From assembly GCA_000091205.1 (NCBI GenBank), contig AP006483.2: a stretch of 64,000 nt of DNA; one strand, 5' to 3'. The translations under genes and the position numbers were made by a program. Position 1 is the first letter of the stretch, and every line of letters starts with the position of its first letter. Shown in pieces: positions 14 through 45,480 of this stretch. The notes below the pieces were generated by a model, which searched no databases, was not told the origin of the DNA, and worked only from the letters and a program-made list of their open reading frames with translations. The stretch is from Cyanidioschyzon merolae (Eukaryota).

Positions 14-1372
14 TTGTCACCACGTGAGGCGTCAGTATCAAGGGGGAACCTGACTGCGGAAGCGATCGAAACCCTCCAGTCGTACCTGCGCATCGACACT
101 GCCCAGCCACAACCTCAGTACCGTAAGGCAGTTCGCTTCATCAAGCAGGCCTGCAAACGAGCTGGTCTTGAAGGTTTCCACCAGTTCTCGTTTCAGCGTG
201 GTCGACTCGGGGCGGTCTGTAGTGTCCAGGGACGCGAGCCGCACCTTGGAGCGGTGGTGCTGAACTCGCACATTGACGTCGTGCCGGCCGAGTCGTCCGC
301 CTGGCGCCTGGCGCCTCCTTTCTCAGCAGCTATTGTCGACGGAAACGTGGTCGCTAGGGGCTCACAAGATATGAAGACGCAAGGAGTGCAGTACCTGGAG
401 GCGCTGCGTCGGCTACGCGCACAGGCCGGCGACAAGTGGCCTATGCGGCGAACGGTCCACGTGCTCTTTGTGCCGGATGAGGAGGTCGGTGGTCGCACGG
501 GGATGGCTTCGCTGGTGAACTCCAGTCTATGGCGTGATACATTGCGCCCGGCAGTGCTGATCGACGAGTGTCTTCCCGAGACTCGCCTCGGTGTCTACAA
601 AGTATGCTATGGCGAGAGACAGCCCTGGTGGATGACCATTCGAACGAGCCATCACACTGCGCATGGCGGAACGCTCCCCGCAGATACGGCGATTCAACGT
701 CTTTTTGCGCTGTTAGACAACGTACTTGCGTATCGAGAGCAACAGCGCCTTGCTGTAGAGAGCCAGAGGAAAGCGCTGGGCGAGGTGCTTGGCGTCAATG
801 TGGTCCACTGGGCCAGCAGCGGCAACGGGAACGCCACCAATGTCATCCCGAGTGATGCAGAAATCCGACTGGATATGCGCGTCCCGCCACATATGTCTGA
901 ACTGGAGGTACTTGCGCTGTTAGAGGAGTGGACACGAGGCTCGTGCAACTGGCACTCGCACAACGGCGAACTTTTGTGTGCGAATGCTACGTACCGTATC
1001 CAGTTCATTGATCGAGTCATTGCACCGTATCGCGAAGTGGTTGACGAGGCCGAGTCTATGCTCTATCGGGCGATTGCCATCGCAGGAAGAGCACGAAACA
1101 TCAGTCTCGAACCGTTTGTGTTCCCCATGAGTACGGACTCGCGGTATGTGCGTCAGGCGGGTGTCCCAGCGTATGGTATCATGGCGCTGGACGGGGTCCT
1201 GCAGGGAGCGCAGTTACATCAGCCTGATGAGTCTGTGCCACTGACTGCGTTCGAGCGAGGTATTTCGTTTTACATGGAATTGGTGCGTCAACTCGCCGAG
1301 GAAGCGCACTGGGAAGCAACCGCAGACGTTGCGAACGTAACTGCCCGTCGGCATACTTCGGATGAACTGTAG
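14..1372 (+). CDS. Aminoacylase-1-like M20 family metallopeptidase (N-acyl-L-amino-acid amidohydrolase); 5' end runs off the window
   Basis: 452-aa continuous ORF. M20/ACY1 signature motifs are NSHIDVVP..WRLAPPF and ARGSQDMK. The N-terminus YLRIDTAQPQPQY aligns near residue 10 of animal ACY1. The frame is open to position 1 with no in-frame ATG, so the start codon lies upstream of the window. Confidence 0.7.
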   Translation: MSPREASVSRGNLTAEAIETLQSYLRIDTAQPQPQYRKAVRFIKQACKRAGLEGFHQFSFQRGRLGAVCSVQGREPHLGAVVLNSHIDVVPAESSAWRLAPPFSAAIVDGNVVARGSQDMKTQGVQYLEALRRLRAQAGDKWPMRRTVHVLFVPDEEVGGRTGMASLVNSSLWRDTLRPAVLIDECLPETRLGVYKVCYGERQPWWMTIRTSHHTAHGGTLPADTAIQRLFALLDNVLAYREQQRLAVESQRKALGEVLGVNVVHWASSGNGNATNVIPSDAEIRLDMRVPPHMSELEVLALLEEWTRGSCNWHSHNGELLCANATYRIQFIDRVIAPYREVVDEAESMLYRAIAIAGRARNISLEPFVFPMSTDSRYVRQAGVPAYGIMALDGVLQGAQLHQPDESVPLTAFERGISFYMELVRQLAEEAHWEATADVANVTARRHTSDEL

Positions 1373-1445
1373 CAGTGGTGCGGCATCGACGTCGTCGGTC
1401 GCATTATGGTGCGGATGTCCCGAATATGATCTTGAGTACCGCATT

Positions 1446-2492
1446 CGCGGTAGTAGCGAATCGCGGAATATCAGTATCGTTCCTGCAACCATTGCCCAGC
1501 AAATCCTTCCCAGTGTACCAGTACGGCGCTGTCGCCTTGGTGCAATGCTGAACACCACCGTACCCGTGCCAGGCTCCAGGCGGGAATCCAATGCCGTCTA
1601 TCCCGGGGTACGGATTCATTGGCATCGAAAGCCTTGCACATCCCAGCACAATGCCAATAACGTGTACCAAACAATCACCTTAGACGCCCGCTCGAGACAC
1701 AGCCGCTGGACGCCCCGAATGCCCCAGACTCTTCTTCCGAATGGTGATCGAGGTGTCCAGGTCTCGGTTCAGAGCGAAAACACTGGCCGGCACGGCGGCT
1801 ACTGGCATCACACCCTAGCAAGCATCTCACCAGGTCGAGTCCGTCGGTACATGACACTCGATCAGCTTACCGTACACCACAGAGTGTACCGGGCTCCGTT
1901 CTATCCGCATCTTGTCAGCCTGATTCAACGAGAACTCATGCTCGTAATGCAGGTATGTCGCCCTGGAGGCATCCACGGGTGTCTAACAAGAATCAGTCGC
2001 TGCACTTATCGTCCGGTCTCGTCCACGAGACGCGAATGGAGGCCACGCGCACTGCAACCCGTGCACCGTCACAGGCTACGACTCACAGAGGCGTCTTGCT
2101 AGTCACTTGGCTTCGTGCCGCTCACGGAATAAGTTCGTGAATGCACGCTCCTCGCTGCCGTACACGAGACGCAGTCTAGGACTCCAGCACTCTATCATGT
2201 ACGCCTGTCCAGGGATCGTCCGCAGGAGCCTGCGGGACGCTGAGGCACGCGCTGAAGCGCGGAATCCCTCGCATCAGTCTTCGTGTTTTTCGGTGGCATT
2301 CCGGTGAGCGGACAGCGCCTACATCAGGCGCGCTCCACACGGACTCGGTTACTCTTCTGGGTTTCGACTCTCGTTAGAAACGCTTTGGAGCTTGCCTCGA
2401 GTGTGCTGCAATCATTAGCATCGCTACTCGACGCGCCACTGTATTCGGGATCAGCTGGGCAACGTCGTTCGACGTGTTGCCAGCGTACTGCA
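1446..2492. repeat. Copy 1 of a ~1.04-kb dispersed direct repeat (LTR-like or segmental duplication)
   Basis: Near-identical to 7275..8323 (7 aa differences over ~215 codons, ~98-99% nt identity). Identity begins at cgcgg...tagcgaatcgcggaatatcagtatcg and ends at ...ccagcgtactgcatc. No recognisable coding content. Confidence 0.85.
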
Positions 2493-4477
2493 TCTCCTGT
2501 CGTGAACGTTGGCTGCAGGGTCGCAACAGATCTCGATCAAAGTATTCCAGATACATGTGAGCAGCTGGTAGCTCTGGTCCTTCAATTCCGAAAAGCAATT
2601 GCGTGATAGAGGGCGGCATGCCAAGAGAAGCTGGGCAAGCCATCCTCGAATGACAATTTCCACGATTCCCAATGACGTGCGGAATCTCACGTTTTGGAGT
2701 ATCATCCCGGTTCATGTATCGAAGCATGGAGTTCTTGACAACGATTTGAGACTGGTGCTTGCGCACCCGCATGTCGCCGTTAGCGTCATTCCCCGTTGTT
2801 TTTTCGAGATCAGCCTTGTCTCCGTTGTGCGATGGTTTTCTGCTCTTTTCTCGTCTCCGCCTGCTCCTCACTTACTTGGCCAGGCAGCGTGGATGTGGTC
2901 GCTGGACTCTACACCCGACCTGGTTCCTCGCGATTCAGGTAGGCTCGATGGACAGCTGGGCTGATGCGTGCCCTCTGTATATACGTATGAATCTACTATT
3001 CATCAAATACCTTTTTGTCACCGTCTCCGTCGCGAGCAAGCCCAAAGACAGATGCGCATCATGCCGCTTCCCCGCAAGCCCGAGCAGCGGAGCGAGCAAG
3101 CGAGCGAGCGGTCCAAGACTGATCAAGGCAGAGGTCGGCTTGTCGGAGAACGGCTTCCCCATGGGTTTCGTTCCCACGAATGCGAACGACTGGTCCATTG
3201 ATCAGTGAACGTCAAAATGGCGTCACATAACAGCGGAGATGCTATCGACTTGATTGAAACAGGGATAACACGCTGGCTCGAAAAGCAGCTCATCACGAAT
3301 CTCAGCGATGTACTCCACGAGCGCGTTTGTGTGATGAACAGCGACACTGTCTTACAGCGGGACTCAGACGTATAGCGAGCAGCCGCCCCAGAATGTGCAT
3401 CGATGAGCGATGTGGTGTTGAGCGACTCTATCTGTCCAGGGATGTATAGACGAAGACGCGATTGACTCGCTGCTCGGGGATGCTGATGTCGATGCGCTCA
3501 CCTGCCCCTTCTCCACGAACCGTTGTGTGCTCAGTTTTGAGTACACGGATACAGGTCTCATCTCTCTCTGAAATGGACGTCCATCGAGTGAGACGAACAC
3601 CGGCCGTCGACTGGAAAACGCATGCGCGTTTCACTACGAACTCACTCACGTGATGCTCAACAAACGACAGTCTCTCAGGGAAGCACGTCCTTCTCTTTCC
3701 GCAAACGTGTCCCTCTATCACACGTTTGAACGAACGATACGGAAACGTTCATACGCTGGCTCCTTTGGAATTATTTCATGGATAACGGATGGAGTGAAAT
3801 TGATTTACGACAGGACAGTCACGCGTATACAGTTTGGTGCGTTCTGTTTGCGATGCCCGACATTCAACCCAGGGAGTTCGAGACGGGCGCTTCATCCACC
3901 ACCTGCTGACCGTAGAATGACTAACTTGCATCCGCAAGACAATTTTTAGCATCAGCAGCAGTGACAGCATAGAGTTTTTTCTGGCCTTTCCCCAATTCAC
4001 AGGATCCATTAGTTGCGTAGCATACCGTCGAGGAAAAAACAATAACGTCATATAGGGTGTACCGGTATCCACGGACCAGCATTCACTGCTCTGAACATAA
4101 CGCTTTGGACGGGCAGCATTCGTCATGCTAGCGTCCGTCTCACCTTAGATTCCAGCGATAAGCTTTGGCGTTCGTTCCGCGGACTGGAGCCGCTTTCTTC
4201 ACCATGACACCTTTCGGTAAACGCGAACTATTCGACGGGGCCAGTTACTCCGTTCCGCTGCGATATCAGAAAAAAGCAACACGCTCTACAGCGCGCAGGA
4301 TAGTACCTGGCGTCGACAAATCAAGACCTCGAAGCACGCGCACTCGCCACGAAGAGCCAGCAACCTTGATTTATATGGACTGAACAGTACAACGGCACAG
4401 CAAAGCGTGAACGTACCTCGAGCTGTACCCGATGAAGACTACTGCCTAACCGTACGAACCTCTGTAGTTTTTCCGTC

Positions 4478-5060
4478 GCCGCGCTGCGCTCTAACGAAAG
4501 CACCTGTGGACGCGTTTACACTCATTCAGCGTATGAGGTTCCAGAAGCACCGAACACAAACCCCAAATAAGCACCCCTGGCTAGCTCCGCATACTTCTGC
4601 GCTATTCCCGTGCGTACACTGCGCTTTGGGAAGCACCGGTGGACGCGTTTACACTCATCCAGCGTATGGGGTTCCAGAAGCACCGCACTCAAAACCAAAA
4701 ATAAGCACCCCTGGCTAGCTCCGCATCCTTCTGCGCTATTCCCGTGCGTACACTGCGTTTAGAGAAGCACCGGTGGACGCGTTTACACTCATCCAGCGTA
4801 TGGGGTTCCAGAAGCACCGAACACAAAACCAAAAATAAGCACCCCTGCCTAGCTCCGCATACTTCTGCGCTATTCTCGTATGTATACTGCGCTTTGGGAA
4901 GCACCGGTGGACGCGTTTACACTCATCCAGCGTATGGGGTTCCAGAAGCACCGAACACAAAACCAAAAATAAGCAACCCTGGCTAGCTCCGCATCCTTCT
5001 GCGCTATTCCCGTGCGTACACTGCGTTTAGAGAAGCACCGGTGGACGCGTTTACACTCAT
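4478..5060. repeat. Tandem array, 134-bp unit x ~4.3 copies
   Basis: The gtggacgcgtttacactcat motif recurs at 4506, 4639, 4773, 4907 and 5041 (period 133-134 bp) with a few substitutions per unit. Confidence 0.85.
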
Positions 5061-6230: not shown

Positions 6231-7274
6231 ACGACTGCGGTTTTTGTCGGGCGTGGGTGCATACTGAGCTAGTGCGCAGGACAGCGTGCCGGCATGACGC
6301 TGCTTCCAAACTCGACGCTTGTCTCGTATAGTCGAAGATGCTGATCCGAACACTGGGCGTCCTATGGCTCCAATACGGGAACCAGATCGATTCGAATGCA
6401 CACGAAGGTGCTGCTGTGTGCACCAGAAGTTTCCCTCCTGCCAGCATGGGAAACGAGGATATGCTATTTAGCCTGATCATCGCGCAGAAGACATGCAGGG
6501 AGCATCACGCTCGACCGCAGATACCCAACTCCTACAGACAGACCGAACCAGGAAACAGTATGTGATTGCTGCTTCTTGGCACATGCAAGCGACGATGAGC
6601 ACGATAGCGCGACACGGGTCTTGGATTCTTTGGCACAGTGTGTGTCTCGCCAAGCTGTGTATCAGGCATTGGCAAAGCAGCAGTCACGCCAAAACCTGTG
6701 TCCCGAGTCACACTCTTGCGGCAGGTCGTGCTCGCGTAAACGGTTTCAGCTCTAACACGTTTCCGAAGTTGGAATCGTGGCAGATACGCATACTTGCAAA
6801 AACTTTCATCCATTGCGTCGCGCCTTGGTAAAGTAACGTAGCGTTGCTTTCGGTCCGAAAAAGCGCCGAGACGATGCCGTCGTCAAGACTCATACATCAT
6901 TCCAGAATATGATGCAGCGAGCGTGACTTGCCTCATTGCGCTGTGGATGGGTCATCAGTTAGCGCTGATCCACGTTCGGATGGAACCTAGAGAGGGCGCG
7001 TCGCGAGCGCAGCGCAGCCTGGGCGCCAGAGCCGCTGTCCAACACAAGGAGCGTGCAGCCTCGCTTGTATTGTCTCCTGAGAGATCTGCGATATGCGCAG
7101 CTCGCACGGCTCAACGATACAAGGCGCAAATATTAAGAGGAAAGAGCGAGCAGGTACAAAGCCCGTATCCGACAGCTACGGATTGTAGAGCGAAAAGATG
7201 GGATTCAAAAGGAAATTAAAAAAGAGAGATGTGTCGTTATAGAAAATATTCCGCAACCACGCCTCCATGCCTAT

Positions 7275-8323
7275 ACGCGGGAATAGCGAATCGCGGAATA
7301 TCAGTATCGTTCCTGCAACCATTGCCCAGCAAATCCTTCCCAGTGTACCAGTACGGCGCTGTCGCCTTGGTGCAATGCTGAACACCACCGTACCCGTGCC
7401 AGGCTCCAGGCGGAAATCCAATGCCGTCTATCCCGGGGTACGGATTCATTGGCATCGAAAGCCTTGCGCATCCCAGCACAATGCCAATAACGTGTACCAA
7501 ACAATCACTTTAGACGCCCGCTCGAGACACAGCCGCTGGACGCCCCGAATGCCCCAGACTCTTCTTCCGAATGGTGATCGAGGTGTCCAGGTCTCGGTTC
7601 AGAGCGAAAACACTGGCCGGCACGGCGGCTACTGGCATCACACCCTAGCAAGCATCTCACCAGGTCGAGTCCGTCGGTACATGACACTCGATCAGCTTAC
7701 CGTACACCACAGAGTGTACCGGGCTCCGTTCTATCCGCATCTTGTCAGCCTGATTCAACGAGCACTCATGCTCGTAATGCAGGTATGTCGCCCTGGAGGC
7801 ATCCACGGGGGTCTAACAAGAATCAGTCGCTGCACTTATCGTCCGTTCTCGTCCACGGGACGCGAATGGAGGCCACGCGCACTGCAACCCGTGCACCGTC
7901 ACAGGCTACCACTCACAGAGGCGTCTTGCTAGTCATTTGGCTTCGTGCCGCTCACGGAATAAGTTCGTGAATGCACGCTCCTCGCTGCCGTACACGAGAC
8001 GCAGTCTAGGACTCCAGCACTCTATCATGTACGCCTGTCCAGGGATCGTCCGCAGGAGCCTGCGGGACGCTGACGCACGCGCTGAAGCGCGGAATCCCTC
8101 GCATCAGTCTTCGTGTTTTTCGGTGGCATTCCGGTGAGCGGACAGCGCCTACATCAGGCGCGCTCCACACGGACTCGGTTACTCTTCTGGGTTTCGACTC
8201 TCGTTAGAAACGCTTTGGAGCTTGCCTCGAGTGTGCTGCAATCATTAGCATCGCAACTCGACGCGCCACTGTATTCGGGATCAGCTGGGCAACGTCGTTC
8301 GACGTGTTGCCAGCGTACTGCAT
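7275..8323. repeat. Copy 2 of the ~1.04-kb direct repeat
   Basis: See copy 1. The two copies have the same orientation and lie 5.8 kb apart. A purine-rich tract (7190-7235) sits ~40 bp upstream. Confidence 0.85.
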
Positions 8324-12298: not shown

Positions 12299-12495
12299 GA
12301 ACTTAGTAAACTGCTATGATGCAGGCACTCAAAGCGTTCTAGGAACAAAGCGGTTGCGACAAACGTCTGAGCACGAGAGTCGACGTCCGCGTCGCAGTAC
12401 GCGCCGCAGACTGCTCCGCAGCGGCGACGTCCTCTGACTGCTTTTGTTACGCTGTTGACTGGAGTGCTGCTCGCGCTCGGTGTGAAGCACCTGAA

Positions 12496-12612
12496 CGGAC
12501 GGACAGACAGACAGATAGATAGAGAGGCAGAGAGGCAGACAGACAGACAGACAGAGAGGCAGAGAGGCAGACAGACAGACAGAGAGATAGATAGAGAGGC
12601 AGAGAGAGGTTT
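12496..12612. repeat. Compound microsatellite (CAGA)n/(GATA)n/(GAGAGGCA)n
   Basis: cagacagacagatagatagagaggcagagaggcagacagacagacagagaggcag... Confidence 0.9.
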
Positions 12613-17957: not shown

Positions 17958-19628
17958 TTAGAAGCGAGCCGTCTTGGGTCGATGGTTGCGCAAATCATCC
18001 GACGGGGTGCCGTCGATGTCCGTCTCGGACTTGGCACCGCGCGGGACTCGTTCCAGGGTAGCGACCAATGCCTGCGCGACTTTCTCTTGCCGTGCACGAA
18101 CGTACTTATCGCTGACCTGCATCCGTTTGTAATAGCCATCGATTTCAACGGACTTGAGGCCTGCCGCAGAACAGATCGCTCGCTTCACTCGAGCTGCAAA
18201 CTCGGCGGCCGATTCATTCGGTTGTTGTTTCATGGGCTCCAGGAAGTAGACGTCAGCAACTAACGCCCAACTCGTCCAGATACGAAAGAGATGCCAAAGA
18301 AACGACTCCTCCATGGAGTTCCAGAACGCGTCCGCGAAAAGCTTGTTGTACTTGATTGCAACCGGGTAAATGACGGCATCCTTCATCTCGAAGGCGCCCT
18401 TCTTAAACATTAAGCAGTATTCATTGTTCACACAGGTACCCTCGGGAAAAATGAGCAGTGGTGGAACATTCGGCTTCTGAAGGTGTTCTTCGATCCGTTT
18501 CCGTACAAGCTGTCGATCCTGGAGGTCGTCGCGCGAGAACCAGATGCATCCAAGACACTCGAGGACGTGCTTTTGGAGCAAGCCCACGATACCACCGTGT
18601 GCCTGGCCAACGGTCGCAAACGGACACAGTTGCTGGAGCACAATCAAATCGATCAGCGACGAGTGATTCGCAACGTAAATCGCATGCGGTCGCATTCGTG
18701 GACGAGTTCCATGATACGCGATAACGCCGCTCATAGACATGATCCAGCACGCTGAGTACAAGACAATAAGCTTTCTTTCCAGCTCGTGACGACGTTCTGG
18801 ATTTCTTCGATAGAGCCATTTGGTTATGGAGAACGCGAGCGCGAAAAGCACGCTCCCACTCACGAGGCAGAGTACGCGCAAAGGCAGTAGGATGCCGTAT
18901 CGGATAACGACACCGAATACCCATGGTAAGAAAAGGTACACGTTCCAGTTCCACGCAGGGACAGGGGTCCGTTTGAAGCACCGCGAAAACTCATCTTCAA
19001 CCACATCCTCCATAGCTTCCGTCGCGAATGTCAGCGGAGCAAAGAGAAGCGGTAACCCGCTGACAGGCATTGCCTCTGTCCCGAGCACCTCCATGAGCGC
19101 CCGCTCGAAGCGCTCTTGCACGCGTTCGCGATCAGAGGAGGCATCCAGGTCACCACGTACCATTCCAGCAAGGTCGGCCCAGGATTCGCTTGCTCTCTGG
19201 AGCGCCAGTTTCGTGCGAGTCTGTCCTCGGGTAAGCAGACCCTCGCGCGGACCCTGGCTCCTTGCCGACGGCGACGCCTGCGCAGCATTCATCAAGACCG
19301 TAGATAACTCCTGGGTCACGGCCAGCGGCGAAGCGCGCTCCACTTGTTTTCCTTGACCTCGCATTGTCTGGGTGATGTCGTAGGCAGCGGGCCGCTCTTG
19401 AGGCGCCTCGATCAGAGGGGTTGGAGGTCTCTCCCTACTCAGTGGCGGTGCCGTTGCAGGTGACGTGTTCCGATCTCCGTCATCGAACACCTTATCTTGC
19501 GCTTTCGCGAAAGAACCAGTTCTCTTTTCAGCGTCGAGGTACTGGGCCACACGCGCGTCCACCGGAACGGGCTCTTCCCCAGGGTTCTCGCCCAGAGGCG
19601 GCTGTGCTTTGGCGGTGGTCGCTGCCAT
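17958..19628 (-). CDS. Glycerol-3-phosphate acyltransferase, GPAT3/GPAT4 (AGPAT6/9) type, LPLAT family
   Basis: 556-aa ORF with an ATG at 19628. Acyltransferase motif I is NHSSLIDLIV (HX4D) and motif III is LLIFPEGTCVNNEYCLMFKKGAFE (near-identical to the GPAT3/4 motif). Hydrophobic segments lie upstream. Confidence 0.8.
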   Translation of the reverse strand: MAATTAKAQPPLGENPGEEPVPVDARVAQYLDAEKRTGSFAKAQDKVFDDGDRNTSPATAPPLSRERPPTPLIEAPQERPAAYDITQTMRGQGKQVERASPLAVTQELSTVLMNAAQASPSARSQGPREGLLTRGQTRTKLALQRASESWADLAGMVRGDLDASSDRERVQERFERALMEVLGTEAMPVSGLPLLFAPLTFATEAMEDVVEDEFSRCFKRTPVPAWNWNVYLFLPWVFGVVIRYGILLPLRVLCLVSGSVLFALAFSITKWLYRRNPERRHELERKLIVLYSACWIMSMSGVIAYHGTRPRMRPHAIYVANHSSLIDLIVLQQLCPFATVGQAHGGIVGLLQKHVLECLGCIWFSRDDLQDRQLVRKRIEEHLQKPNVPPLLIFPEGTCVNNEYCLMFKKGAFEMKDAVIYPVAIKYNKLFADAFWNSMEESFLWHLFRIWTSWALVADVYFLEPMKQQPNESAAEFAARVKRAICSAAGLKSVEIDGYYKRMQVSDKYVRARQEKVAQALVATLERVPRGAKSETDIDGTPSDDLRNHRPKTARF

Positions 19629-20228
19629 GCCTCACCGACACCGTTCAGAACCAGGCGGAAGCTGCAGAAGCTGGATTCGCCACCGAAAACCCGACGGACG
19701 AAAGACTTGAGTCACGTCGGACCCGTCTCTGGAATAGAGAAAAAAGGTTTTGGCCAGTTTATCGTGACGTTGTCGAGCAGGCGTGCGCTGCGCCTCAGGG
19801 CGTGTGCTCCAGAGGCAACGCCAGTGCCGATTGGTGCCGGCGCACCGTATACCGCACTCAACTGAAGCGTGTTCCACACAAAGGTGTGTGGAAGTCGATG
19901 CTTTTTTCGTTGTATGTAGCAGACGCTATCGCAGGTCGTTCATTAGACGTGATAAAAAAATCTAAGGGAATGGTATGGGGGTGCTATGCGGAAATCCCGG
20001 AAGGCTTTCATTGCCGGGTTGAACAAAACTGGAAAGCCGTGCCGAGCATAGAGGAACGGGAAAGGACGATGCAGCAGAAGCAATCGCGCGAGGCCGGACG
20101 TTGAAAAGGATCTCGAAAGACGACAGTACGACGGGATGGTGGTGAAAGCCTCTTTTCTTGGCCATAGCTAGTATCCCTACAAAAAAAAGTTACGAGAAAC
20201 GATCAGAAACCTTGTCGAGTCGTATTCA

Positions 20229-20783
20229 ATGAGTATTATTGAGGCTTCTTCGGGACTGGTGCATATGGCGAAGGAGATGTACGACAATGTGACGGACATT
20301 CGAAGAGTCAAGATTCCGGACGAGTTTTTCGACAAGACCTTTATTCGTCACCTTGTGCTTGGTACAGGGGATGCGCGGGGTGAAAATGAGCGGGTGCACG
20401 TCCTCCACGAAAACTTTGCAGAATTCCGCTTCGAGGGTAATCGATACAGGGGTGACGCGGATGCTTACATATACGGGGCGATGAAGTATCTCACGAATCT
20501 GAAGAACCATTTGACAATGAACGTCGAACGTTTCATGATACGCCCCGTGTTTGCACTTTACGCGGGCATCTCTCGCAAAGGAATATGGGCAATTATCAAT
20601 GGCTTTACAAACAATCCCCAGCATGAAGATGAGGTTGAATTCGTCGACAAGAAGGCGTCACACAGGAGAAGGAATGAAGCTTCTGTAATCCGTGCGCCTA
20701 CTAAAGAGCACCGCGCAGAATTGGGACTGGCGAATCCAGCAGAAAAGATATCAGAGTTGAAAACAGATACGGAAAGATACTAA
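20229..20783 (+). CDS. Fanzor/TnpB-like nuclease, segment 1 (N-terminal, putative WED/REC-like region)
   Basis: ATG at 20229, 184 codons, ends at TAA 20781-20783. The next segment is in a different frame that opens at 20855. The join could be a short intron (for example GTAATC at 20685 to AAG at 20866) or a frameshift. Confidence 0.45.
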   Translation: MSIIEASSGLVHMAKEMYDNVTDIRRVKIPDEFFDKTFIRHLVLGTGDARGENERVHVLHENFAEFRFEGNRYRGDADAYIYGAMKYLTNLKNHLTMNVERFMIRPVFALYAGISRKGIWAIINGFTNNPQHEDEVEFVDKKASHRRRNEASVIRAPTKEHRAELGLANPAEKISELKTDTERY

Positions 20784-20866
20784 TATCTCATCCTGCGGTA
20801 TTTCGTGTTTTTGGACCGCGAGCTCGAACGCAAGGCGGAGATGATGCTAAGTGAGGAAAAAATGAA

Positions 20867-21646
20867 GTGCGGGAGAGACGGAAGGCTTTCCGAATGGGGG
20901 AGCGCTCCAACATCGTTCCGTTGTGCAACATCAAGTCACATTTTGTGCGTATTGATTCCGGCGTCCTTTACGGCATCATGAAGGGGATCTGTCCGGGGTT
21001 CGATGTAAGGAAGACAGAGTTCTCCGGTGAAACCCAGGAGACGTACTGGAAGAATATCTTCGATATCAAACGTCTCAAAGTGAGCAAGAAAAAGAAATTC
21101 ACTGGGATGATAGAAACTGATGGACTAGCCATATGTGTACACTATCGGCGGTTCAAGACAGATCGGCATGTTCCGTCTTCGGCTTTGCCCGAGACGAAGC
21201 ATGAAGATGAGAAGGAGGAGGATCCTGCGATGCAGAACGTGCAGAAGAACGACTTTTTCGTTGGCGCGGACCCCGGGAACACGAACATCGTAACCATCGC
21301 AGTACGCAGGCGTGCGGAAGATGGTACTGATGGTACCTTGCGTCGGAAAGAAATGCGTCTATTGAGATTCTCTAGAGCGAGATACGATCGAGAATGGGGA
21401 ATCATGAATGCGAGGAGGAAAATCGAGACTTGGAATGCAGGAGTGAAAGAGCACCTGGAAGCTATGAGCGAAGTGACGAGCCGCGAAGCAGACTTGAAAG
21501 CTTTTCGGGAGTCCATGGAAGTTCGCGTTGCGCATTGGGAGGCGCTGTGGGCGGCGGAGTATACAAAGCCCCGGTGGGCTCGTTTGCGAATGAATTTGTA
21601 TTTTGGGAAACAGCGTGCATTCGCGAATTTTTTTTCAATGAGTTGA
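20867..21646 (+). CDS. Fanzor/TnpB-like nuclease, segment 2 (RuvC-I)
   Basis: Contains [21 protein letters not shown] (RuvC-I Asp). It overlaps segment 3 in another frame. A T8 homopolymer at 21628..21635 is a candidate frameshift point. Confidence 0.55.
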
Positions 21647-22130
21647 GCGCCTTGAAGGAGGATGAAAGTCAGAGGCTCCTAGTAGCATACGGAGCAGGGC
21701 GATGGAAGATCCAAAAAGAAACTATGCCAGCTCCAACGACGAGAACATTCAAAGAGTGCGCAAGGCGCTTCGTTACGATACCTGTAGATGAGTTCCGAAT
21801 GTCCTACACACACCATGAACTGGGATGTACACTTCAGAACGTCGAGATGGAAAAGTGCCAGCGGAGCCCTGAGGAGGATATAGCAAAATATGGACCGCTG
21901 GCGGAAGAGCAAATGGAAAGGAGAGCGAAAGCTCGAGGACTACTTGCATTAGTAAGTACAACCAACGATGGCAAGAAACGGATGGAGTTTGTGAATCGAG
22001 ACTTGAACGCCGCGATCAATATACGGGGATGGGCGGTGATGGAGCATAAACCTCCAGACAGGACAAGAGTGAACTTTATCGGACAATCACTTCAAGTCGA
22101 ACTATATGAGAAAAAGTTGAAACCAGTAGT
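21394..22130 (+). CDS. Fanzor/TnpB-like nuclease, segment 3 (RuvC-II, zinc finger, RuvC-III); ancestral stop at 22128-22130
   Basis: Contains LLVAYGAGRW ... FVTIPVDEFRMSYTHHELGCTLQNVEMEKCQ ... KKRMEFVNRDLNAAINIRGWAV. Comparison with copy B (aaaaagccaagccgatag) shows a 1-nt insertion in A (aaaaagttgaaaccagtag). This shifts the ancestral TAG out of frame, so the track ORF reads through to 22365. Confidence 0.6.
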
Positions 22131-23055
22131 CGTTGGCCGGTCCAAAAAACTGGGAGGCGTCTGCACGTCACTTGGAGACTTCTTGTCTAGGGCAGGCTTC
22201 TCGCCACTATTGTACCACTGGCAGCAGCGTTTGTCTTTTGAAAGGCGTTTGTTGTTGGAGGTGGGCGTGAACGAAGGCCACTGTGAAAAGTCTGCGTCAA
22301 GTCGCTTTTTCTTTCGTACTCCCAGGCCTTCTGCAGCTGAGCAAACTACTGAACCGAGCGCTTAGGGCGACTCGGGTTTCTGTGAGAGGCAGCCCGCGGT
22401 TGGTATCATGGTGCGGCACACGCCTCGGCGAGGTTCGGGTGTGGGCACTGCAGCCCCAGCGGTTGCGTCCACATCCAGAGCAAAGCACGGACCTGTTGCT
22501 GCAACAGCGGTGCCACAGCAGGCATCCACACCCCCGTGCGATGTCTCTGGAGAGGACCATGCGTCCCAGCCAGGCGCCTCAGCGGAGACGCTTGAGGTGC
22601 CCAGCGACTTTGGGTGCGACGACTTGCGCCCTGCAGCAAGCGCAACCCGGGATTCGGGCAAGCACCTGGAGCCGGACGCCGAACGGTTTGGCTCTTTGGA
22701 ACAGGTGCGTCAGGAAGCCGAAGCAGGAACGGAACTGACGCGCTCTGCACTGGGTCCTCGCCAAGTGCGGAAGCGAGTGGTGCAGCGTCGGTCCGCGACA
22801 GGCGCTGCAGAGCGAGCCCCAGTGAGTACGCACCCGCCGTCTGATGCGGCTCCAAGGAGCGGCACCTCTGTCGGAGGAACCAACACAGGACAGAGCGGGC
22901 AGGATGCTTGGCACCCAGCGGGTGCTTCTGGACCGGATGCCCCGGAAACCCCAGCTGCGTTCATCACCAGTGCTGCTGTTCCCGAAAGCACCGGTGCTGA
23001 TCTTCGTTGGACGCCTGCTCCCTCATCGGAGCATCTCACCAGAGGCGCTGTCGTC

Positions 23056-33719: not shown

Positions 33720-33995
33720 ATCGCCAGCGTCGCCGCCGCCAACGCCATCGCTGCAGGCAGCCGCAAGGCATTGAGATTGTGATCGTTTCCTGGAGCGCGC
33801 CTGCGTTGCTGCAGTGCAGATATTTCTGATGCGCCGCCGCCGCCGCCAACGCCATCGCTGCAGGCAGCCGCAAGGCATTGAGATTGTGATCGTTTCCTGG
33901 AGCGCGCCTGCGTTGCTGCAGTGCAGATATTTCTGATGCGTCGTCGCCGCCGCCAACGCCATCGCTGCAGGCAGCCGCCAATCCGCCTTCAATCG
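33720..33995. repeat. Minisatellite, 107-bp unit x ~2.6
   Basis: gccatcgctgcaggcagccgcaaggcattgagattgtgatcgtttcctggagcgcgcctgcgttgctgcagtgcagatatttctgatg recurs at 33744, 33851 and 33958. Confidence 0.85.
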
Positions 33996-35526
33996 ATTTT
34001 TCGTTGGATATAAGGTTTCCATCGTGGACCACGGATGCCGGATGGCGAGTTGACTACGGGCATTCGCGAAAGCGTCCATGATTCTTTACTCTGCGTCCAT
34101 TTTCCATGATCCGTACTTCCTCCTGAGTGTACGAATCGTTTTGGTGATTCCATCGTGCGCTGAGCGTCTGCTCTGCTGCACCCGCAATGGCGCCTATATC
34201 CTAGTGCGGATACAGCTCGAAGACAGGACGAGATGGTCATATGAATGAGGGCGCCAGCTCGAGGCATGATTCATTCAATACGGGATCGGAATTCACCATC
34301 TTTCTGGGAGCCTGCGTACTGCGCAGACAGACCAAGTGCGTGCGGCAGTGCGAAGCGATACGCTAGGAGCAAACGCTACCAGCGCGACACCGAAATGCAC
34401 TCCAGCCACTCCTAGTCGCAGAACAAAATGCGCTATGAACAAACTGTTCAGATGTTGCAACAGGACCGGGTACTACGGGATACCTTGCTTCAGTTTTAAG
34501 CGCCCGGTGCCGTACTTGGCGATTATGAGCGTCTTCCAGGCGATCTCGCCGACAAGTACACTGTGCGCTGTACACGCAAGATCACGCTGTTCCATGCGAT
34601 AGCGCTGCTGTGGAACGCGATGTCGTCGATGATGAAACATCTACCAGAATGAGAATCCAGATCAGAAAAGCATTCGAGAGATTTTTGGCTGAGTGTATGT
34701 TCCATTCGTGCGAAGCGGTGACGCTCTCTCTATAAGAAGCGATCACTGCACCGACTCCAGTCTGAATGCAAGACCCTCTCCCTTGCAATCGGAAAGACGG
34801 GGAATGCCCTGCCATTCAATGATGCTGCTGGTGCTGCTCCTATTGAATGCCGCTCCGTCGATGGTTTTACAAAGACACACGAGGATTCGGCTGCGGAACG
34901 GGTTGATTATTCGGCGCAACAAGTTTCATAAACTACCGGCATACGCTAATGAAAAAGCCTTCAAGGCATGATGAAAATTTTCTACTCGTATATCCAGCAG
35001 AACGTATCGTGGCGCCCACGAGTTTCCTTCCAACAGAAAGATTCAAGGCTCGAAGCATGCGTGATTCGGACACGCTGACTGTAAGGAAAGGCAACGAATG
35101 GAGGCCTGTACTTATACATTGGATGGTGATATCCGTCATTATATGAAACCCCTTGTTCGAGAGCGCCACGAGTCATCTTGACGCGGGTGCCGTCACGCAT
35201 TCCAACGGCAATACGTCAACGTATCCACTCCAAAAGACCACCGAGTATGCCGAGACTGCGCATAAATCCGTATGTTCTTGTTGCTGAGCTTTGAATGGCT
35301 AAATAGCGCATCTGAAAAGCGTTCTGAAAAATTCTGAAAGGCACGAACAGAGCAAGCACTTCTACATCCATTCTAACCTGACACGAGCGTAGCGCCCAGA
35401 CGCCAGCCAGCGTTGTCAAGTTCCACGATAATCCGGCTCGTTCACAGGCGTTATCGGGCGCCATCATGGGACCAAGGTGGGCCGGTCCCGTTGCGCTCTT
35501 TTCTCGACAGTGGCCCCAGCTTCGAT

Positions 35527-37849: not shown

Positions 37850-38323
37850 ACATGGACGTCAGAGATCCCGCGGAGCCGTCATCGCCGCGTGCCAGAGAAA
37901 TCCGTGCAAAATACGCTTTTCATCGACTATCGAGCGTCGAAGAGGAAGAAGAACAAGAAGAGGTGAGGTAGGCGAGAAAAGATGCTTGCCCGACGGGACG
38001 ATAACGAGACTGTATCGGCCCAGAGGGCACGTGTTCGAGGACTTGTCGCGTCGGTGAGTTCAGGCAGCGGCAATGCACGCAATGAGTTCGTGAACCGGGA
38101 CTTTAGCGCCGCTATGCAGAGTAGACGATTTGCGGTGCTGAAGATGAGATTCGAGGAGCTGACGCCATCGAACTTTATGGGGCAGCCTCTCTGGCTCGAA
38201 GTGTGCCTGGATAAAAAGCCAAGCCGATAGCTAGCGGCCGGTCGAAAAATGCCAGGAGGCGTCTTTGAGCGGGAGTGCACATACACTCTATGGTTGAGGG
38301 ACATTTTTTTGCTTCATTGACAT
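37850..38323 (+). mobile_element. Fanzor-family 3'-terminal remnant, copy B (Tc1-like junction plus RuvC-III end plus right-end tail)
   Basis: Encodes ...SGSGNARNEFVNRDFSAAMQ... (RuvC-III remnant) ending at TAG 38228-38230. Then ggaggcgtct ... ttcattgacatg (38323), a right end shared with copy D. Upstream ~37700-37900 is homologous at DNA level to the transposase-tail region of copy D (gatcccgcggagccgtcatcgcc). Confidence 0.6.
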
Positions 38324-41300
38324 GTGGAGCAATCGTGTTCACATGACCGGTGATTCGCTGCAGACGGGTTCAGGAAACGACGGGGCAGCAGGAGAAATGC
38401 ATCGCCAATCGGATGCGGTGGATCGCGGCACCCTTCTGGTTGACAGACCGTTTACGGAAATCAGGGATGCCCTGTTGTACACCATGGGTAAACGCAGTGC
38501 CGTGATCGGTGGAACACCTGTGCGAGGACGCATTTTTGCTATTTATGGATGGCTTTTTTTGCGGATAGTCAATAAAAGGAAGGTATTCTATTGGTTGGAA
38601 AAAGTTCGCTGAAAGACTTGATGCCGTCACTGCGAGTCTGCAAAAAAAGGTCTTTTTTGTCCAAGTCAGTTCTTCTACGCTCAGCAAGCGGATGAAGCGC
38701 ATTTCTCGTTGTCCATATTGTAAAGGCCATGCACCCTAGACGGAAGTTGTTAAACCGCATCAATACGACTGTCTTCGGGTATATGCATTCTACTCCATAG
38801 ATTGTTTGACGAATGCTGATACAGAAGCCAAAGATTCTGAACTTTCCGAAACAATGACACGAATGGTGAAGAAGAAACGGGCGCGGAGAAAGAAAAAAGC
38901 GCGCTTCTCTGGGAGATCGTCGGGCGTTGAATGATACACGGCAGGTTCTATCATGTAACGTGACCGCCTATAGCAGGAGCGACGCGTATTCGTCTCGTTC
39001 GATGGGACATCATTCGGGAGAAATCGCAGTCTTCTATGTAGATGCTTAAAGAGAGGCAATCTGCTGCTCGCTAATATGAGAGAAGCGAGCGTGACGAAAC
39101 CATGACCCCGAACGGCAATCATACCGAGTGGGCGCCCAGCATTCTCTCAACGGACAGAGTTGTTGAACGCCTCCGGCTTTGTTGAAGCGCTCTTCATGGC
39201 ATCTCCTTCCAGCACTCTAAAGTCCTGCTATAAAAGAAAACCACATTCCATCAAGAAGAAACGGTGAAAGCGTATGCAGCTGAAACTGGCTTTGATCTGC
39301 TCTTCGTGTCAGCGTATTAGACTTGCTTCCGTCTAGTCAAAGACGTCTCCTCTGTTGCCAAACGCCATTTCTATGTCCAGCGCACGATAGACGGCTCGTT
39401 CGCATCCGTGACACCAAAGTTCTGTGGCAAGTCGCTCGCTGTTACCTTCACCAGTCCTGAACTACTGTATTGCCCCCGAGCCCGTACACGACATCGAGCG
39501 TAGAGGTGCGCTTCGGTCTGTGCGCGTGATCGCGACGCAGAACGGAACAAAAAACCCTGCTGGAATACGCAGTGCATTCGTAGAGGAGGCGCGCTTCAGT
39601 GCAATCGATCATCCAGATCGTCTGAGAATCTAAGAATCAAAGAGATGCGGAGTGTAGCGATCACAAGCGTGACATCCCACCATGTAAAGAACACAGCGAC
39701 AAACGAGATGAGGTAGAAACCATCCGACAAAGGAGAGGCAGATCCCGCAGAAAAACAACGAGGACGAGGAGGGACAGCGATGAAAACCTGTCGGAGCAAA
39801 ATAGTCAGTTTGAAACCACTGTCAAGGTTTCGCTCCGAAAAATGCAGCGTGGGGATTCTGCAAAACAAACCGAGATGCAGAGCGCCATGATGGATAGTAT
39901 ATAGCTTCGTACTCGATCAAGGCTCGCCTAGCTTGCCTCACCATGAAGCGTCATCTCGAGGAACGATTTCTAGACGTTCCGGATGCAGGGCTCCCATCTG
40001 TCCATATTCCCCTGGAAGTTCTCGATCAGACCTTCGTGCGCTAACACAACTGGTGCTCGGCACAGAAGCGGCAGTACGGCCGGGATCGGAGGATCAGCGA
40101 TTTCGGCACGCGCTTCTCAGAATACCATGACGAGTTGCCATGCCGTATCGGCGATGGGCACAATCCACTGCGCAGTTGCCGAAAATCATCAAAGCAATCT
40201 CGAAAACCGTATGCGAGATAATCAAGAGGGTTTCATAGAAAGCACGCAGTGGGCGTTGCAGCCTCACCAGACTGACCCAAACATGAGGAACTTCATGAAA
40301 GCGGCTCTCCAGTTCGGAGATTACACGGGCGTCAGAATGGCTCACGCGAAGGAGCTTTGGCGGCAGTGCATGATACTGCGCTTTGGATCACCATCGGTTT
40401 CGGTTGTGCGGAGGCAAGAAGCTTGGATTCGCCAATTTGTTCAGCGAGCTGGAAAAGGAAACGATCGAGAAAACACGGCGCGAGCTCGTGGTAGCCTATG
40501 GAGCTGGACCTGCGGTACCAGGCGCGCGCCGCACCCCTGGCCCTTCGACGACAGCAAGCAGCAAGTGCAGGCATCGATTGTAACCGATTCTCATCCTTGG
40601 ATTCAGAAGGATCGAACCGCATCACGAGCACGGTCACACGCTGGAACAGGTAGAGAAAATGAACATGAAACGGATCCAGATGCACGAAACGGTAAACACT
40701 AAGATGGCTGAATATCGATTGGTGAGGCAATCGAGATTTCCTGGCTTCGTATGGTGTGATTCCACCAGCAGCGGAGCGCGCGAGCTCGCCATGCACAACC
40801 TCGTGAACGCCTCGATCCACGTCCGGAAATGTCGTGTGTTTCCGGAGCGCCCAGCAGCATTGCATCGAGCGAACTTTCAAGGAAATCACTGAGTATTCAG
40901 TGTGGACGTAATGCTGAACCGCTGAAGAGTCTCGATGAAAAACCAGCGGCCGTCAGAGGTGCATTGGATGCGCATCTAGAGCAATGCAATGGACTGGTAC
41001 GCGTTCGTAATGCAGAAAGGAATGGATTCCCGATATATACAACGAGAAAGGTTCTCTCGGACAATTGGTGATCGCTCACGGTAGTCCATTACTCGAAATT
41101 CCTCTGTGGCTGCTTTCATTGTCTGCAGAGAGGGATCGCATCGCACGTAAGATCAAGAAATTATAGACGAAGCATCCGGGGCCTACTGCCAGCGAATCTT
41201 CATATTCAAATGAAAGTCCATGGAATGGTGGCAGCGGCACTGGCGGTGTTAGATTTATGGAGACTGGAGGACATAAGGCGCAACCATGAAGGCTCCCTCG

Positions 41301-41860: not shown

Positions 41861-43189
41861 TCAACGACGACGAGACTCGGAGCGTTTTCCCGCTGTTACA
41901 TGCGAAAGCGCTTCAGCATTACTATCGAGCTTGCTTAGTATCGAGGCAGCAACAGCGTCAATGCGTGCGAGAATTTCAGTTTTCAAGGCTTGCAGGTCTG
42001 CCGGTGTTACCGCCGCAACCGACACGGGCGCAGACTTTGGCACCGGGCGTGAGCTCCGACCAGCACCAGCACCAGCACCAGAACCGGGCGCACCACTCAC
42101 TTCCTCGCCAGCGACCAGTCCGGTATGCACCTGTCTTCGTCGACCGGCTGCACCGCTTGGAGCAGCCCCCGTTGGATGAGAGGTTGCGCTCTGGGTGGTC
42201 TGGGCTTCGCCACTGGCCTGGAGTGGTCCGGCACCAGCAATCGTACCCGCTGCTGTCTGATGTTTCCCGTCGGTGCCCGTTCGCCCATGCGCAGGCCCGT
42301 TCGGTTTCGGAACACCGACACGAGCTGGTCGCCAGCGTGTGCCGCCACGCTCGAGGTTGAGCATCTCACTGGACTGCGTCTCTGGGAAAAACACCTCATA
42401 GAGTCCAGTGCCCTCATCCATACGCAGAATCGTGCACCCCATCCAGGCACGCAGTGGCGCGTAGAAGACCTCGATATCCGTATTCGGGTGTAGGTGTGGT
42501 CGAAGAAGACGTTCGCGCTGCTGAATATGAACTTCAAGTTCTTTTAGCCTCGCGTCCGCAGCGGCAGCTTGCTCCTCGTAGGCAGCAACTTCGGCGCGAT
42601 ATTCCAGCGCCCTCTCCTCGGCTGCCTCTAGAAGAAGCTCGGCGTGCTGACACACCCAGTTCTCCGCTGGATCCTGGTTGTACGCTAGTGTGTTGTCACG
42701 CATGAGACGCACGTCGGCGAGGAAGGCATCCAAACTCGCGTACATGTTTTTGCGAGCCCGTTCCCGGAAGTGGTTCAGAAAAACAGGCTGTTTGATCCTC
42801 CGCCGATAGTCATTGGTGGGCGGAATCCGCGTAAAGTCCACCCCGGTATTCGCCGGACGCGACAAGAGCGTCGCATTCGGCGGCCTCTGCTCCACCGGAA
42901 GTGACCGCGGCACGCGTCGAATGACCAAGCGCACTGGGTCATTGAGCTTCGCCGTGGCCTCTTGGTCGATGTACGCCAGCTCCTCGTTCCGAAGGGCTTC
43001 CTCGATGGCCAGTATCACCCGATTAATACGCTCGCGAGCTTCATCTCGTCGTTTCCGTTGTGCAGCTACCTCTTCGGCCTCAAGCGCCGTTATTTTCGTG
43101 AGCAAGTCGAGGTACTCTTCGTCGAGCCGTTTCCGTTTTTCAACAAAGTCCTCCAGCTTGGTCGTTGGCGTCACCTCGGCAAGTACCAT
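41861..43189 (-). CDS. Bromodomain-containing protein (probable) with coiled-coil N-terminus and Ala/Gly/Pro-rich C-terminus
   Basis: ATG at 43189. The segment IKQPVFLNHFRERARKNMYASLDAFLADVRLMRDNTLAYNQDPAENWVCQHAELL follows the bromodomain helix B-C pattern (Y..L..F..D..LM..N...YN.....V), with the ZA-loop region upstream. Confidence 0.45.
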   Translation of the reverse strand: MVLAEVTPTTKLEDFVEKRKRLDEEYLDLLTKITALEAEEVAAQRKRRDEARERINRVILAIEEALRNEELAYIDQEATAKLNDPVRLVIRRVPRSLPVEQRPPNATLLSRPANTGVDFTRIPPTNDYRRRIKQPVFLNHFRERARKNMYASLDAFLADVRLMRDNTLAYNQDPAENWVCQHAELLLEAAEERALEYRAEVAAYEEQAAAADARLKELEVHIQQRERLLRPHLHPNTDIEVFYAPLRAWMGCTILRMDEGTGLYEVFFPETQSSEMLNLERGGTRWRPARVGVPKPNGPAHGRTGTDGKHQTAAGTIAGAGPLQASGEAQTTQSATSHPTGAAPSGAAGRRRQVHTGLVAGEEVSGAPGSGAGAGAGRSSRPVPKSAPVSVAAVTPADLQALKTEILARIDAVAASILSKLDSNAEALSHVTAGKRSESRRR

Positions 43190-43289: not shown

Positions 43290-43836
43290 GCGCTGCGCCC
43301 CCGACGCAATTCTCAAAATCGCTGTGCGGAATTCGGAGCGCAGTGCCCCCGATGCACAGCCCTGAATCCCTGGGGGAATTCTCAAAATCGCTGTGCGGAA
43401 TTCGGAGCGCTGTGCCCCCGATGCACAGCCCTGAATCACTGGGGGGGAATTCTCAAAATCGCTGTGCGGAATTCGGAGCGCTGCGAACCCGATGCACCGC
43501 CCTGAATCACTGGGGGGAATTCTCAAAATCGCTGTGCGGAATTCGGAGCGCTGCGAACCCGATGCACAGCCCTGAATCCCTGGGGGGAATTCTCAAAATC
43601 GCTGTGCGGAATTCGGAGCGCTGCGAACCCGATGCACAGCCCTGAATCCCTGGGGGAATTCTCAAAATCGCTGTGCGGAATTCGGAGCGCTGTGCCCCCG
43701 ATGCACAGCCCTGAATCCCTGGGGGGAATTCTCAAAATCGCTGTGCGGAATTCGGAGCGCTGCGAACCCGATGCACAGCCCTGAATCCCTGGGGGGAATT
43801 CTCAAAATCGCTGTGCGGAATTCGGAGCGCTGTGAA
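43290..43836. repeat. Satellite array, ~62-bp unit x ~9, EcoRI site (gaattc) twice per unit
   Basis: gaattctcaaaatcgctgtgcggaattcggagcgctg(tg/cg)(cccc/aacc)cgatgcacagccctgaatc(c/a)ctgggggg is repeated head-to-tail with point variants. Confidence 0.9.
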
Positions 43837-44089
43837 TGGTATCCCTCGTAGAGATGCTATGGATGCTATTCTTAAGAGTGATGGTATGAATGTTGACGAT
43901 GATTCTGCTTCCCGTGTCGCTCGCAAACGTTCGTGCGATTGCAGCAGCGCGTTCCATGTGCACAGCTACGTATCCGGTTGGAGATTGTGCGAGACATTGC
44001 AGGAGTCTCACGTGCGTGCATGTCGTCAGGCTTGATGACGAATCGTTTACCATGGAACATTGCTGCATCTTACGGACGTTCAATGCAAT

Positions 44090-45480
44090 GCTGTCCAATT
44101 CCCGCTGAGTGTAGTCGACTGCTTTTTCGCAGCGTTGAGCAGGAGATCGAAACCGCTGTAGGATGTACCCGATAGATCGTAGCCGAATCGCTTGTCGGCT
44201 ATATTTTCCCTACTGGAGCGTACAAGCAGGATTGCATTCATCATTCAGGAAGGCCATACCGCAGTACTCAGATGATTGAGGAACAATGAAACAAAGAAGT
44301 ATCTGCGCTCTACGTCAGAAACTGATTTTGTCAAAGACTGTTTGCTGTCCATGGGACAAGTAACAACGGTTGATCATCTTACGGGACGCAAAAGCGACGA
44401 TCGAAGCAACCACGCATGTCACGGTTTCGCAGAAGCTGGCGCGTGCGGACCCGAAAACCCTGGGATACAATCGCCAAAAAAGTTCTAGTTCACGCGCGGC
44501 CATCTTCCAACGAAATCTCAACGACAGCATTCCTGGAACTTTGCGACCGGTGTGAAGCACAGGAGCATCGGTTAGTTCTTCCAGTTGATGACGCTTGATT
44601 TGGCCGAAACAGTCAGAGCGTATGTGGGTAATCGCGGGGCGCGGAGCCCGTTATATGAAAGATCGGACTCGAAAAGACGGACATCATCATGTGTTCTAGC
44701 TGCAGAGGATCTTTTTGGCGGCCTCAGTTTCGCAATTGGAGAGGACTCGTACACCACCGACCACTTCGTCGATTCAACGAAGACGTTTCCCTGGAATCTG
44801 GCGACGTCCTTCTATTGGACAACGTTTCATTTGACCATTCCCATTGGGTTCGAGCTTTTGCCGATCCTATCGGGGTAGAGGAGCTTTTCATTCCTCCGTA
44901 ATCTCCGTGGCTCAACCAGATTGAAAGAGTTTTTTCTAGTCCGAAACATAATGATCGCTCCACTGAGCGTTTTGCCGAAGCGTTCAGCTCACGATGTCAA
45001 ACCAGGGCGCATGTCGTCATTGTTGCACAGGTGCTTCTACCTCCTGCAATGACTTCATCTATGGGCATAAAGGAGCCAGTTCATTCAAAAAAAATTCAGG
45101 GATGAGCTTCGGTATACACTAGAGAAGGTCGAGATGGAGAGAGGGCAGCGGAGCGCTTCGGCGACAGGAACGCATTCAGAGCCGACGGAGTAGCAAATGG
45201 TAAAAAAGGCACGAGTCCGAGGAATCCTTGCATCGGTGACTTCAACCAGCGGCAAACAACGCATGGAATTCGTGTACCGAGACGTCAACGCTGCTATCTG
45301 TACCAGAAGATGCGTGGTTCTGAACACGAGCTCAGAAGAGATGACGCGATCGCACTTCGCGGTGCAGCTTGCAAGGCTCGAAGCGTACAATCGAAAACTG
45401 AAGCCGGTAGCATTCCGCCGGTCCGCAGAGGCGAGAAGACGACTGTGAGTGAGTACCTATATTGACCCTCCATGGACTTC
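44090..45480 (+). mobile_element. Composite degenerate element, copy C: Tc1/mariner-type (DDE_3) transposase remnant fused to Fanzor 3'-terminal fragment
   Basis: The 44585..44940 region encodes ...SGDVLLLDNVSFDHSHWVRAFADPIGVEELFIPP*SPWLNQIERVF (the DNxxxH ... LPPYSP.LNPIE signature of Tc1/mariner/IS630 transposases, with stop and frameshift). The 45125..45448 region encodes EVEMERGQ...GKQRMEFVYRDVNAAIC (Fanzor zinc-finger/RuvC-III remnant, Cys to Gly). DNA is homologous to copy D throughout. Confidence 0.65.

Follow-up and report, generated by a model that had tools for sequence, protein, structure and literature searches.

A decayed member of the Fanzor1-encoding CMe-1A family on chromosome 1 of Cyanidioschyzon merolae, with lesions that vary among natural alleles

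The window analyzed here, a stretch of 64,000 nucleotides taken at its full length, is part of chromosome 1 of strain 10D of Cyanidioschyzon merolae, a nearly intron-free red alga. The element under study (copy A) lies in a 2.8-kb spacer with an acyltransferase gene on one side and a BRF1-like gene on the other (Table 1). It is read in three consecutive open frames, with segment 1 in frame 0 (running to the TAA at 20781-20783), segment 2 in frame 2 (20867-21646) and segment 3 in frame 1 (21394-22365); the overlap of segments 2 and 3 in different frames at 21394-21646 had been pointed out in a preliminary description of this DNA and is confirmed by these ORF boundaries. An exact look-up of the 323-aa product of segment 3 returned no record, and an Rfam scan of the window gave no match. 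Several tandem arrays are also present in the window, including one of 70-nt period and ~8 copies beside the gene CMA025C (among arrays at 43303-43906, 4498-5060, 33728-33941 and 12490-12609), others of 134-nt period (four copies) and 107-nt period (two copies), and a (GACA/GAGG)n microsatellite.

Table 1. Copy A, its motifs and lesions, related pieces and identified genes in the window (position 1 is the first letter of the window)
Feature	Position	Strand	Basis or remark
Acyltransferase gene (lysophosphatidic-acid)	17958-19628	minus	Exact match to C. merolae 10D entry BAM78739
Copy A, 5'-truncated CMe-1A	20021-22247	+	Matches consensus 955-3169 at 85-86% identity (blastn and global alignment)
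Nonsense TAG	20169-20171	+	AAG (Lys) in consensus and alleles L004-L009; P0159 reads ..LGHSKYPY..
Nonsense TAA	20781-20783	+	TAT (Tyr) in consensus and allele L012/P0156
A6 run, -1 frameshift from frame 0 (segment 1) to frame 2 (segment 2)	20857-20862	+	A7 in consensus, L011 and L012
RuvC-I motif GADPGNTN	21263-21286	+	Asp invariant in the wider family
T8 run, +2 frameshift from frame 2 (segment 2) to frame 1 (segment 3)	21628-21635	+	Alignment to consensus, paralogs and alleles
PVDEFRMS motif	21781-21804	+	Glu invariant in the wider family
RuvC-III motif NRDLNAAINI	21994-22023	+	
TAG named in the preliminary description, an out-of-frame trinucleotide in cca gTA Gtc (P V V)	22127-22129	+	Four-way alignment; consensus protein ..KKLEAVVGGRSKK..
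A6 run, the actual 3' lesion (A7 to A6, -1)	22144-22149	+	Alignment of alleles and consensus
Ancestral stop codon TAG (..GRSKKTGRRLHVTWRLLV*)	22188-22190	+	P0153, consensus protein, four-way alignment
Copy B, 232-bp fragment	38033-38264	+	~71% identical to consensus 2850-3082
CMA025C	41861-43189		Exact match to C. merolae 10D entry
Copy C	45102-45357	+	72% identical to consensus 2737-2995; copy A's frame kept through ..RKLKPVAFRRS..
Further CMe-1A fragments	34027-34467, 48384-49012, 59093-59531		Similarity to consensus

CMe-1A is the sole Fanzor1 family described in the C. merolae genome (Bao & Jurka 2013, Mobile DNA 4:12, PMC3627910). It comprises ~150 copies, each ~80% identical to a 3169-bp consensus and only some of them intact, has no TIRs and TSDs given as undetermined, and encodes the CMe-1 protein in a single-exon ORF of 734 aa that ends ..GRSKKTGRRLHVSWRRFV; a short element, TE-N2_CMe, has its 5' 635 bp in common with CMe-1A (PMC3627910). 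Comparison with the consensus DNA and protein from the supplementary files of that paper (PMC3627910) places copy A in the family by nucleotide similarity to the 3169-bp consensus, with 1901 of 2211 aligned bases identical (86%) and 9 indels. Consensus positions 1-954 gave no blastn match beside copy A, where only 393 bp are available up to the start codon of the acyltransferase gene; from the absent match and the lack of upstream room we infer a 5' truncation by which the first 954 bp, including the ATG at consensus position 906, are gone. Of the two parts expected at the 5' side of a complete element, the 635-bp TE-N2_CMe-like region and the start codon, copy A has neither. In its motifs, junction sequence and C-terminus copy A is like the published family, and the copy-number and decay picture also agrees; it is unlike the consensus in being 5'-truncated and in carrying two nonsense and three frameshift lesions. 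A family ORF of at least 700 aa is kept at only 3 of 82 family loci and, since an off-length A tract is common in the paralogs (see below) and so few loci retain a long ORF, copy A is typical of its family. It is an ordinary decayed member of an already-known family published in 2013.

Identification of the encoded protein required distant comparisons. An exhaustive profile search yielded 1466 related cluster representatives, and a profile (A3) combining an allele of copy A as seed with distant relatives matched the solved Fanzor1 structures from Parasitella (PpFz, 9cf0, E=7.4e-22), Spizellomyces (SpuFz, 8gkh, E=2.4e-15) and Guillardia (GtFz, 9cer, E=3.3e-6), while an hhalign comparison with the Fanzor1 PUl-1 of Pythium gave 87% probability (E=3.7e-6). 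The breadth of A3 was needed, as profiles built from the close-family alignments A1 and A2 returned nothing relevant from the PDB; in Pfam, likewise, neither the three window segments nor full-length relatives matched any family above threshold, the only hit being a faint PF07282 at E=0.23. A first AlphaFold model (P0013, shallow alignment) was unusable at pLDDT 35. For P0153, an allele of copy A, AlphaFold2 gave a model of pLDDT 83.4 and pTM 0.79; when this model was compared with the PDB by Foldseek, its first seven matches were all Fanzor1 structures, at E=3e-13 to 5e-10, and Cas12 and TnpB came next. Two residues of P0153, Asp D126 and Glu E299, are invariant across 82 relatives, and D369 is conserved in at least 90% of them; E299, the Glu of the PVDEFRMS motif, is likely the catalytic glutamate. 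With sequence profile, RuvC-type fold and conserved acidic residues all in agreement, the family of copy A belongs to Fanzor1.

The solved Fanzor1 proteins SpuFz (8GKH), PpFz (9CF0) and GtFz (9CER) are omega-RNA-guided DNA endonucleases, whereas the C. merolae family is known here by sequence and predicted fold. They have the GxDPG, DE(F/Y)RTS and NRDxNA motifs in common with it and reach query-normalised TM-scores of 0.49-0.63 to the predicted fold, but they are only 13-18% identical to it, and copy A itself is non-functional. Bacterial TnpB (IS200/IS605, e.g., ISDra2; PDB 8H1J) and Cas12 have the RuvC fold and the C-terminal TNB region in common with the C. merolae element (Foldseek E=1e-3 to 8e-5). 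The relationship is nevertheless distant, the element being eukaryotic, without a TnpA partner, and with its Zn-finger cysteines largely replaced (..SYTHHELGCTLQ..); PF07282 matches of the C. merolae family are sub-threshold, whereas Pythium PUl-1 passes the PF07282 cut-off. A precomputed Pfam label, PF26935 (DUF8286), is attached to ORFs of the alleles L004 (7984-8736) and L010 (86-1381) and to many relatives, and is absent from the local Pfam scan; because the labelled ORFs are parts of the Fanzor1 protein, DUF8286 seems to cover a Fanzor1 region. Just upstream of RuvC-I (window 21190-21268; columns 400-520 of alignment A1) lies an acidic tandem repeat of ~75 nt (25 aa, ..KHEDEKEADPAxQEVxDNDLVV..), present as one unit in copy A and as two to ~five units in other copies (P0007, P0017, P0019).

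The junction of segments 2 and 3 coincides with the T run, an exact T8 and, as had been proposed, the only low-complexity site of the overlap, in which no other homopolymer of at least 5 nt occurs. The preliminary description had taken this run to separate the two segments; indeed, a tblastn alignment of a full-length family protein stays in frame 2 up to 21637 and is picked up in frame 1 from 21631, so that the switch falls inside the run. It had also suggested that a change of one nucleotide, in either direction, would join the segments, and the joined product (..ANFF+FNELSALK..) does exist, as the T9 allele P0149/L011, but the T8 itself represents a +2 change. This follows from the CMe-1A consensus, which reads AAC TTT TTC AAT (..ANFFN..), i.e., T5, at this site, from more than 12 metagenomic homologues that read through the site in one frame, and from the comparison with other genomic copies that had been recommended as a check, in which 73 of the 76 paralogous loci covering the site have the consensus length and are in frame while T8 is off. 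The ancestral state is T6 at the copy A locus and T5 in the family consensus.

At the copy A locus itself, T6 is carried, in frame (..ANFFNEL..), by L005 and L010/P0153; T7 by L012/P0156, P0150, P0157 and P0161; T8 by the window, L004 and the protein clusters P0025 and P0027; and T9, again in frame (..ANFFFNEL..), by L011/P0149. Run lengths appear on both backgrounds of a linked T/G polymorphism at 21603, which points to recurrent slippage or change at the run or to recombination. A synonymous, locus-specific AAC to AAT change would have lengthened the family T5 to T6, with subsequent drift to T7, T8 and T9 in different haplotypes; such a lengthening may explain why the tract is unstable at the copy A locus only and stable in the paralogs.

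At the 3' end, the strings from which the preliminary description argued do exist (copy A, AAAAAGTTGAAACCAGTAGTC at 22111-22131; copy B, AAAAAGCCAAGCCGATAG at 38213-38230), yet most of what it drew from them has to be revised. The TAG that it placed at 22128-22130 lies at 22127-22129, one base away, and was never the stop that copy A had supposedly put out of frame: the same TAG is out of frame in the consensus (GCA GTA GTG), copy A (cca gta gtc), copy B and copy C alike. A single-T insertion proposed for copy A (22117) appeared because copy A had been aligned to copy B only, and a four-way alignment of the consensus and copies A, B and C runs without a gap there. The TAG of copy B was considered as the ancestral stop and rejected on the same alignment, in which a private 2-nt insertion in copy B, just upstream of the quoted string, shifts the upstream frame onto it. 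The ancestral frame is that of copy A through ..KKLKPVVVGRSKK.., in agreement with ..KKLEAVVGGRSKK.. in the consensus and ..RKLKPVAFRRS.. in copy C. The ancestral stop has indeed been lost in copy A, as had been claimed, but by a deletion in the A run at 22144-22149, 15-20 nt downstream of the site originally proposed. Here the consensus reads AAAAAG, A7 is found in L004 and L010, and A6 in the window and L011; an A7 run leads to the terminus ..GRSKKTGRRLHVTWRLLV* at the TAG at 22188-22190, in line with the published C-terminus, and an A6 run keeps the frame open as far as 22365. Conservation of the paralogs extends ~60-70 nt beyond the stop codon, to the element end. The 3' ends of 26 paralogs are conserved for ~10 nt beyond the end of the published CMe-1A consensus (..GAAAGGCG|TTTGTTGT), and more weakly for another ~15 nt (window 22240-22260), and the true right end of CMe-1A may thus lie slightly past consensus position 3169.

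Copy A carries further lesions, and the preliminary list, although correct in including the T8, had left out the 5' truncation, an additional frameshift and both nonsense codons. Besides the window, only L011 and L012 have the TAG at 20169, whereas the TAA at 20781 is found also in L004, L005 and L011, and the A6 at 20857 also in L004, L005 and L010. Of 76 paralogs, 15 deviate in length at the corresponding A7 tract (consensus position 1783), 14 of these by a non-multiple of 3, so that, by this count, the A tract at 20857-20862 is a recurrent frameshift hotspot. Relative to the consensus, copy A additionally has small indels at 20030, 20070 and 20103, in-frame 3-nt insertions at 21550 and 21871, and a 2-nt deletion at 22214 in the 3' untranslated part. 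Considered as a gene, copy A in 10D has neither a start codon nor an uninterrupted frame, the start being missing and the coding region broken by the stops at 20169 and 20781 and the frameshifts at 20857, 21628 and 22144. Judged from its reading frames, no Fanzor protein can be made from it.

Natural alleles of copy A were recovered from Yellowstone metagenomes as orthologous contigs that are ~99% identical to the window and carry the same flanking host genes (acyltransferase or BRF1); according to the literature one allele dataset is a Yellowstone metagenome, and Obsidian Pool, in Yellowstone, is the source of one sequencing run. Four lesions of the window, namely the T8, the A6 runs at both positions and the TAA at 20781, reappear in Yellowstone metagenomes that were assembled independently. 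None of the alleles examined is intact, each having at least two of the inactivating point lesions, but no such lesion is common to all of them. Since each lesion is absent from at least one natural allele, the lesions are recent. Sequencing error is excluded as their cause, given that each homopolymer state of the window was found again in an independent assembly and that two of them are substitutions. Of the two possibilities left side by side in the preliminary description, recent inactivating lesions or sequencing errors in an active gene, the former is thus retained and the latter set aside. Using exact-flank matching in the same way for copy and flank, we found that three of four runs of at least 6 nt vary in length among alleles inside copy A vs. 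none of seven in flanking DNA. A further flanking run that varies is the A7 run at 19954-19960, in the spacer upstream of copy A, which is A6 in L004-L008.

Two observations on the alleles count against a plain pseudogene reading. The allele P0153/L010 retains a C-terminal ORF of 431 aa that is free of interruptions and includes the three catalytic motifs, and the allelic substitutions (36 non-synonymous and 25 synonymous, site ratio 3.6) correspond to a dN/dS of ~0.4, below the strict neutral expectation. The latter value could stem from function having been lost very recently, from transition bias, or from paralogs contributing sequence by conversion or chimeric assembly, and there is a small chance that some alleles were functional until recently. 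The allele L011 (JGI 3300050367) shows ~21 differences in 400 bp (~5%) in the equivalent of window 21768-22151, vs. ~1% elsewhere, and is without the GAG at 21871, like the family consensus; this divergent 3' stretch resembles the outcome of gene conversion with a paralog as donor, or of chimeric assembly of the metagenome.

Taken together, we consider it highly probable that copy A is a dead copy of CMe-1A, a Fanzor1-encoding element, with real, young lesions, i.e., an ordinary pseudogene. CMe-1A is a non-autonomous transposable element whose Fanzor1 is a eukaryotic relative of the bacterial RNA-guided nuclease TnpB; its 5' 954 bp with the start codon would have been lost first at this locus, and the point lesions gathered afterwards. 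Homopolymer length changes (A7 to A6, T6 to T8 and A7 to A6) make up three of the five downstream lesions in 10D, the other two being nonsense substitutions, and such changes are as expected from replication slippage in sequence free of selection. That the three frameshifts are instead sequencing or assembly errors in an active Fanzor gene is exceedingly improbable: they do lie in homopolymer runs, which are classic error sites, and the window is not matched by L004 and L010 at the 22144 run or by L005 and L010 at the T run, but independent Illumina assemblies reproduce the T8 (L004 and the P0025 and P0027 clusters), the A6 at 20857 (L004, L005 and L010) and the A6 at 22144 (L011), both nonsense codons stem from substitutions, and the ATG is gone together with the rest of the 5' 954 bp. 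Moreover, the C. merolae 10D genome is a finished Sanger assembly.

We assign an equally minute probability to the T8 being a programmed recoding site. In such a scenario, known from some bacterial IS elements, segments 2 and 3 would be expressed as one product through either a -1 shift of the ribosome on U UUU UUU or slippage during transcription. The protein made after a -1 slip on T TTT TTT would be identical to that of the natural T9 allele; against this, the published consensus and 73 of 76 paralogs have T5 and run straight through in one frame, the published element is listed as a single-exon 734-aa ORF, alleles of the copy A locus are in frame with T6 or T9, and the upstream stops and missing start codon block translation anyway. 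A slippery T7-T8 tract with a downstream stimulatory structure conserved in the paralogs was not seen, and the in-frame reading of the consensus and the paralogs rules out programmed frameshifting. We also considered, and rejected, an intron that would join the segments, as the published ORF is a single exon and the alleles join the frames by run length alone. A hypermutable T run that toggles a still-useful (domesticated or truncated) Fanzor ORF in natural populations would explain the four run lengths (T6-T9) among six alleles that differ by ~1%, on both 21603 T/G backgrounds, as well as the dN/dS of ~0.4 and the one allele with an intact 431-aa RuvC-containing ORF. However, no allele is intact over the whole coding region, each having at least two lesions, the other homopolymers of copy A vary too, as neutral decay predicts, and the N-terminal half (RNA/DNA binding) is interrupted in alleles that are in frame at the T run, making such a switch highly improbable. 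Also very unlikely is the related scenario of a truncated insertion that was still coding in a recent ancestor of the Italian (10D) and Yellowstone populations, with both the T and A tracts switching an expressed, possibly domesticated RuvC protein.

The preferred reading, an ordinary pseudogene of CMe-1A, has its parallels in homopolymer slippage as known from other pseudogenes, bacterial contingency loci and IS frameshift tracts, where length changes in short A/T runs switch the frame and several lengths segregate, as in copy A. Contingency loci and IS tracts differ from copy A in that the latter gives no sign of the switching being used and in that its tract is absent (T5, stable) in the rest of the CMe-1A family. 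The biological weight of this pseudogene is small, the family and its Fanzor1 protein having been described in 2013 and most copies being known to be degenerate. Its value lies rather in annotation: segments 1-3 are to be treated as one CMe-1A pseudogene and not as three hypothetical ORFs, and the 323-aa ORF to 22365 as a frameshift artefact. What is new is that the lesions still segregate between the reference strain and the Yellowstone populations, that slippage would lie behind three of the five downstream lesions of copy A, and that the precomputed DUF8286 label sits on part of a Fanzor1 protein.

Other pieces of the family and its relatives are scattered over the window (Table 1). The fragments at 34027-34467 and 48384-49012 are stand-alone 5' parts of CMe-1A (consensus ~8-619, 72-77% identity) and fit TE-N2_CMe. 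More divergent Fanzor-like remnants are found at 40401-40883 (+ strand, 35% amino acid identity to CMe-1), 1734-2207 (- strand, 23%) and 7564-7995 (- strand, 24%), hinting at older or additional Fanzor lineages beyond the one family described in 2013. The latter two remnants adjoin a pair of 300-nt repeats that are 98% identical (1443-1742 and 7273-7572), and this repeat pair suggests a segmental duplication of ~5.8 kb.
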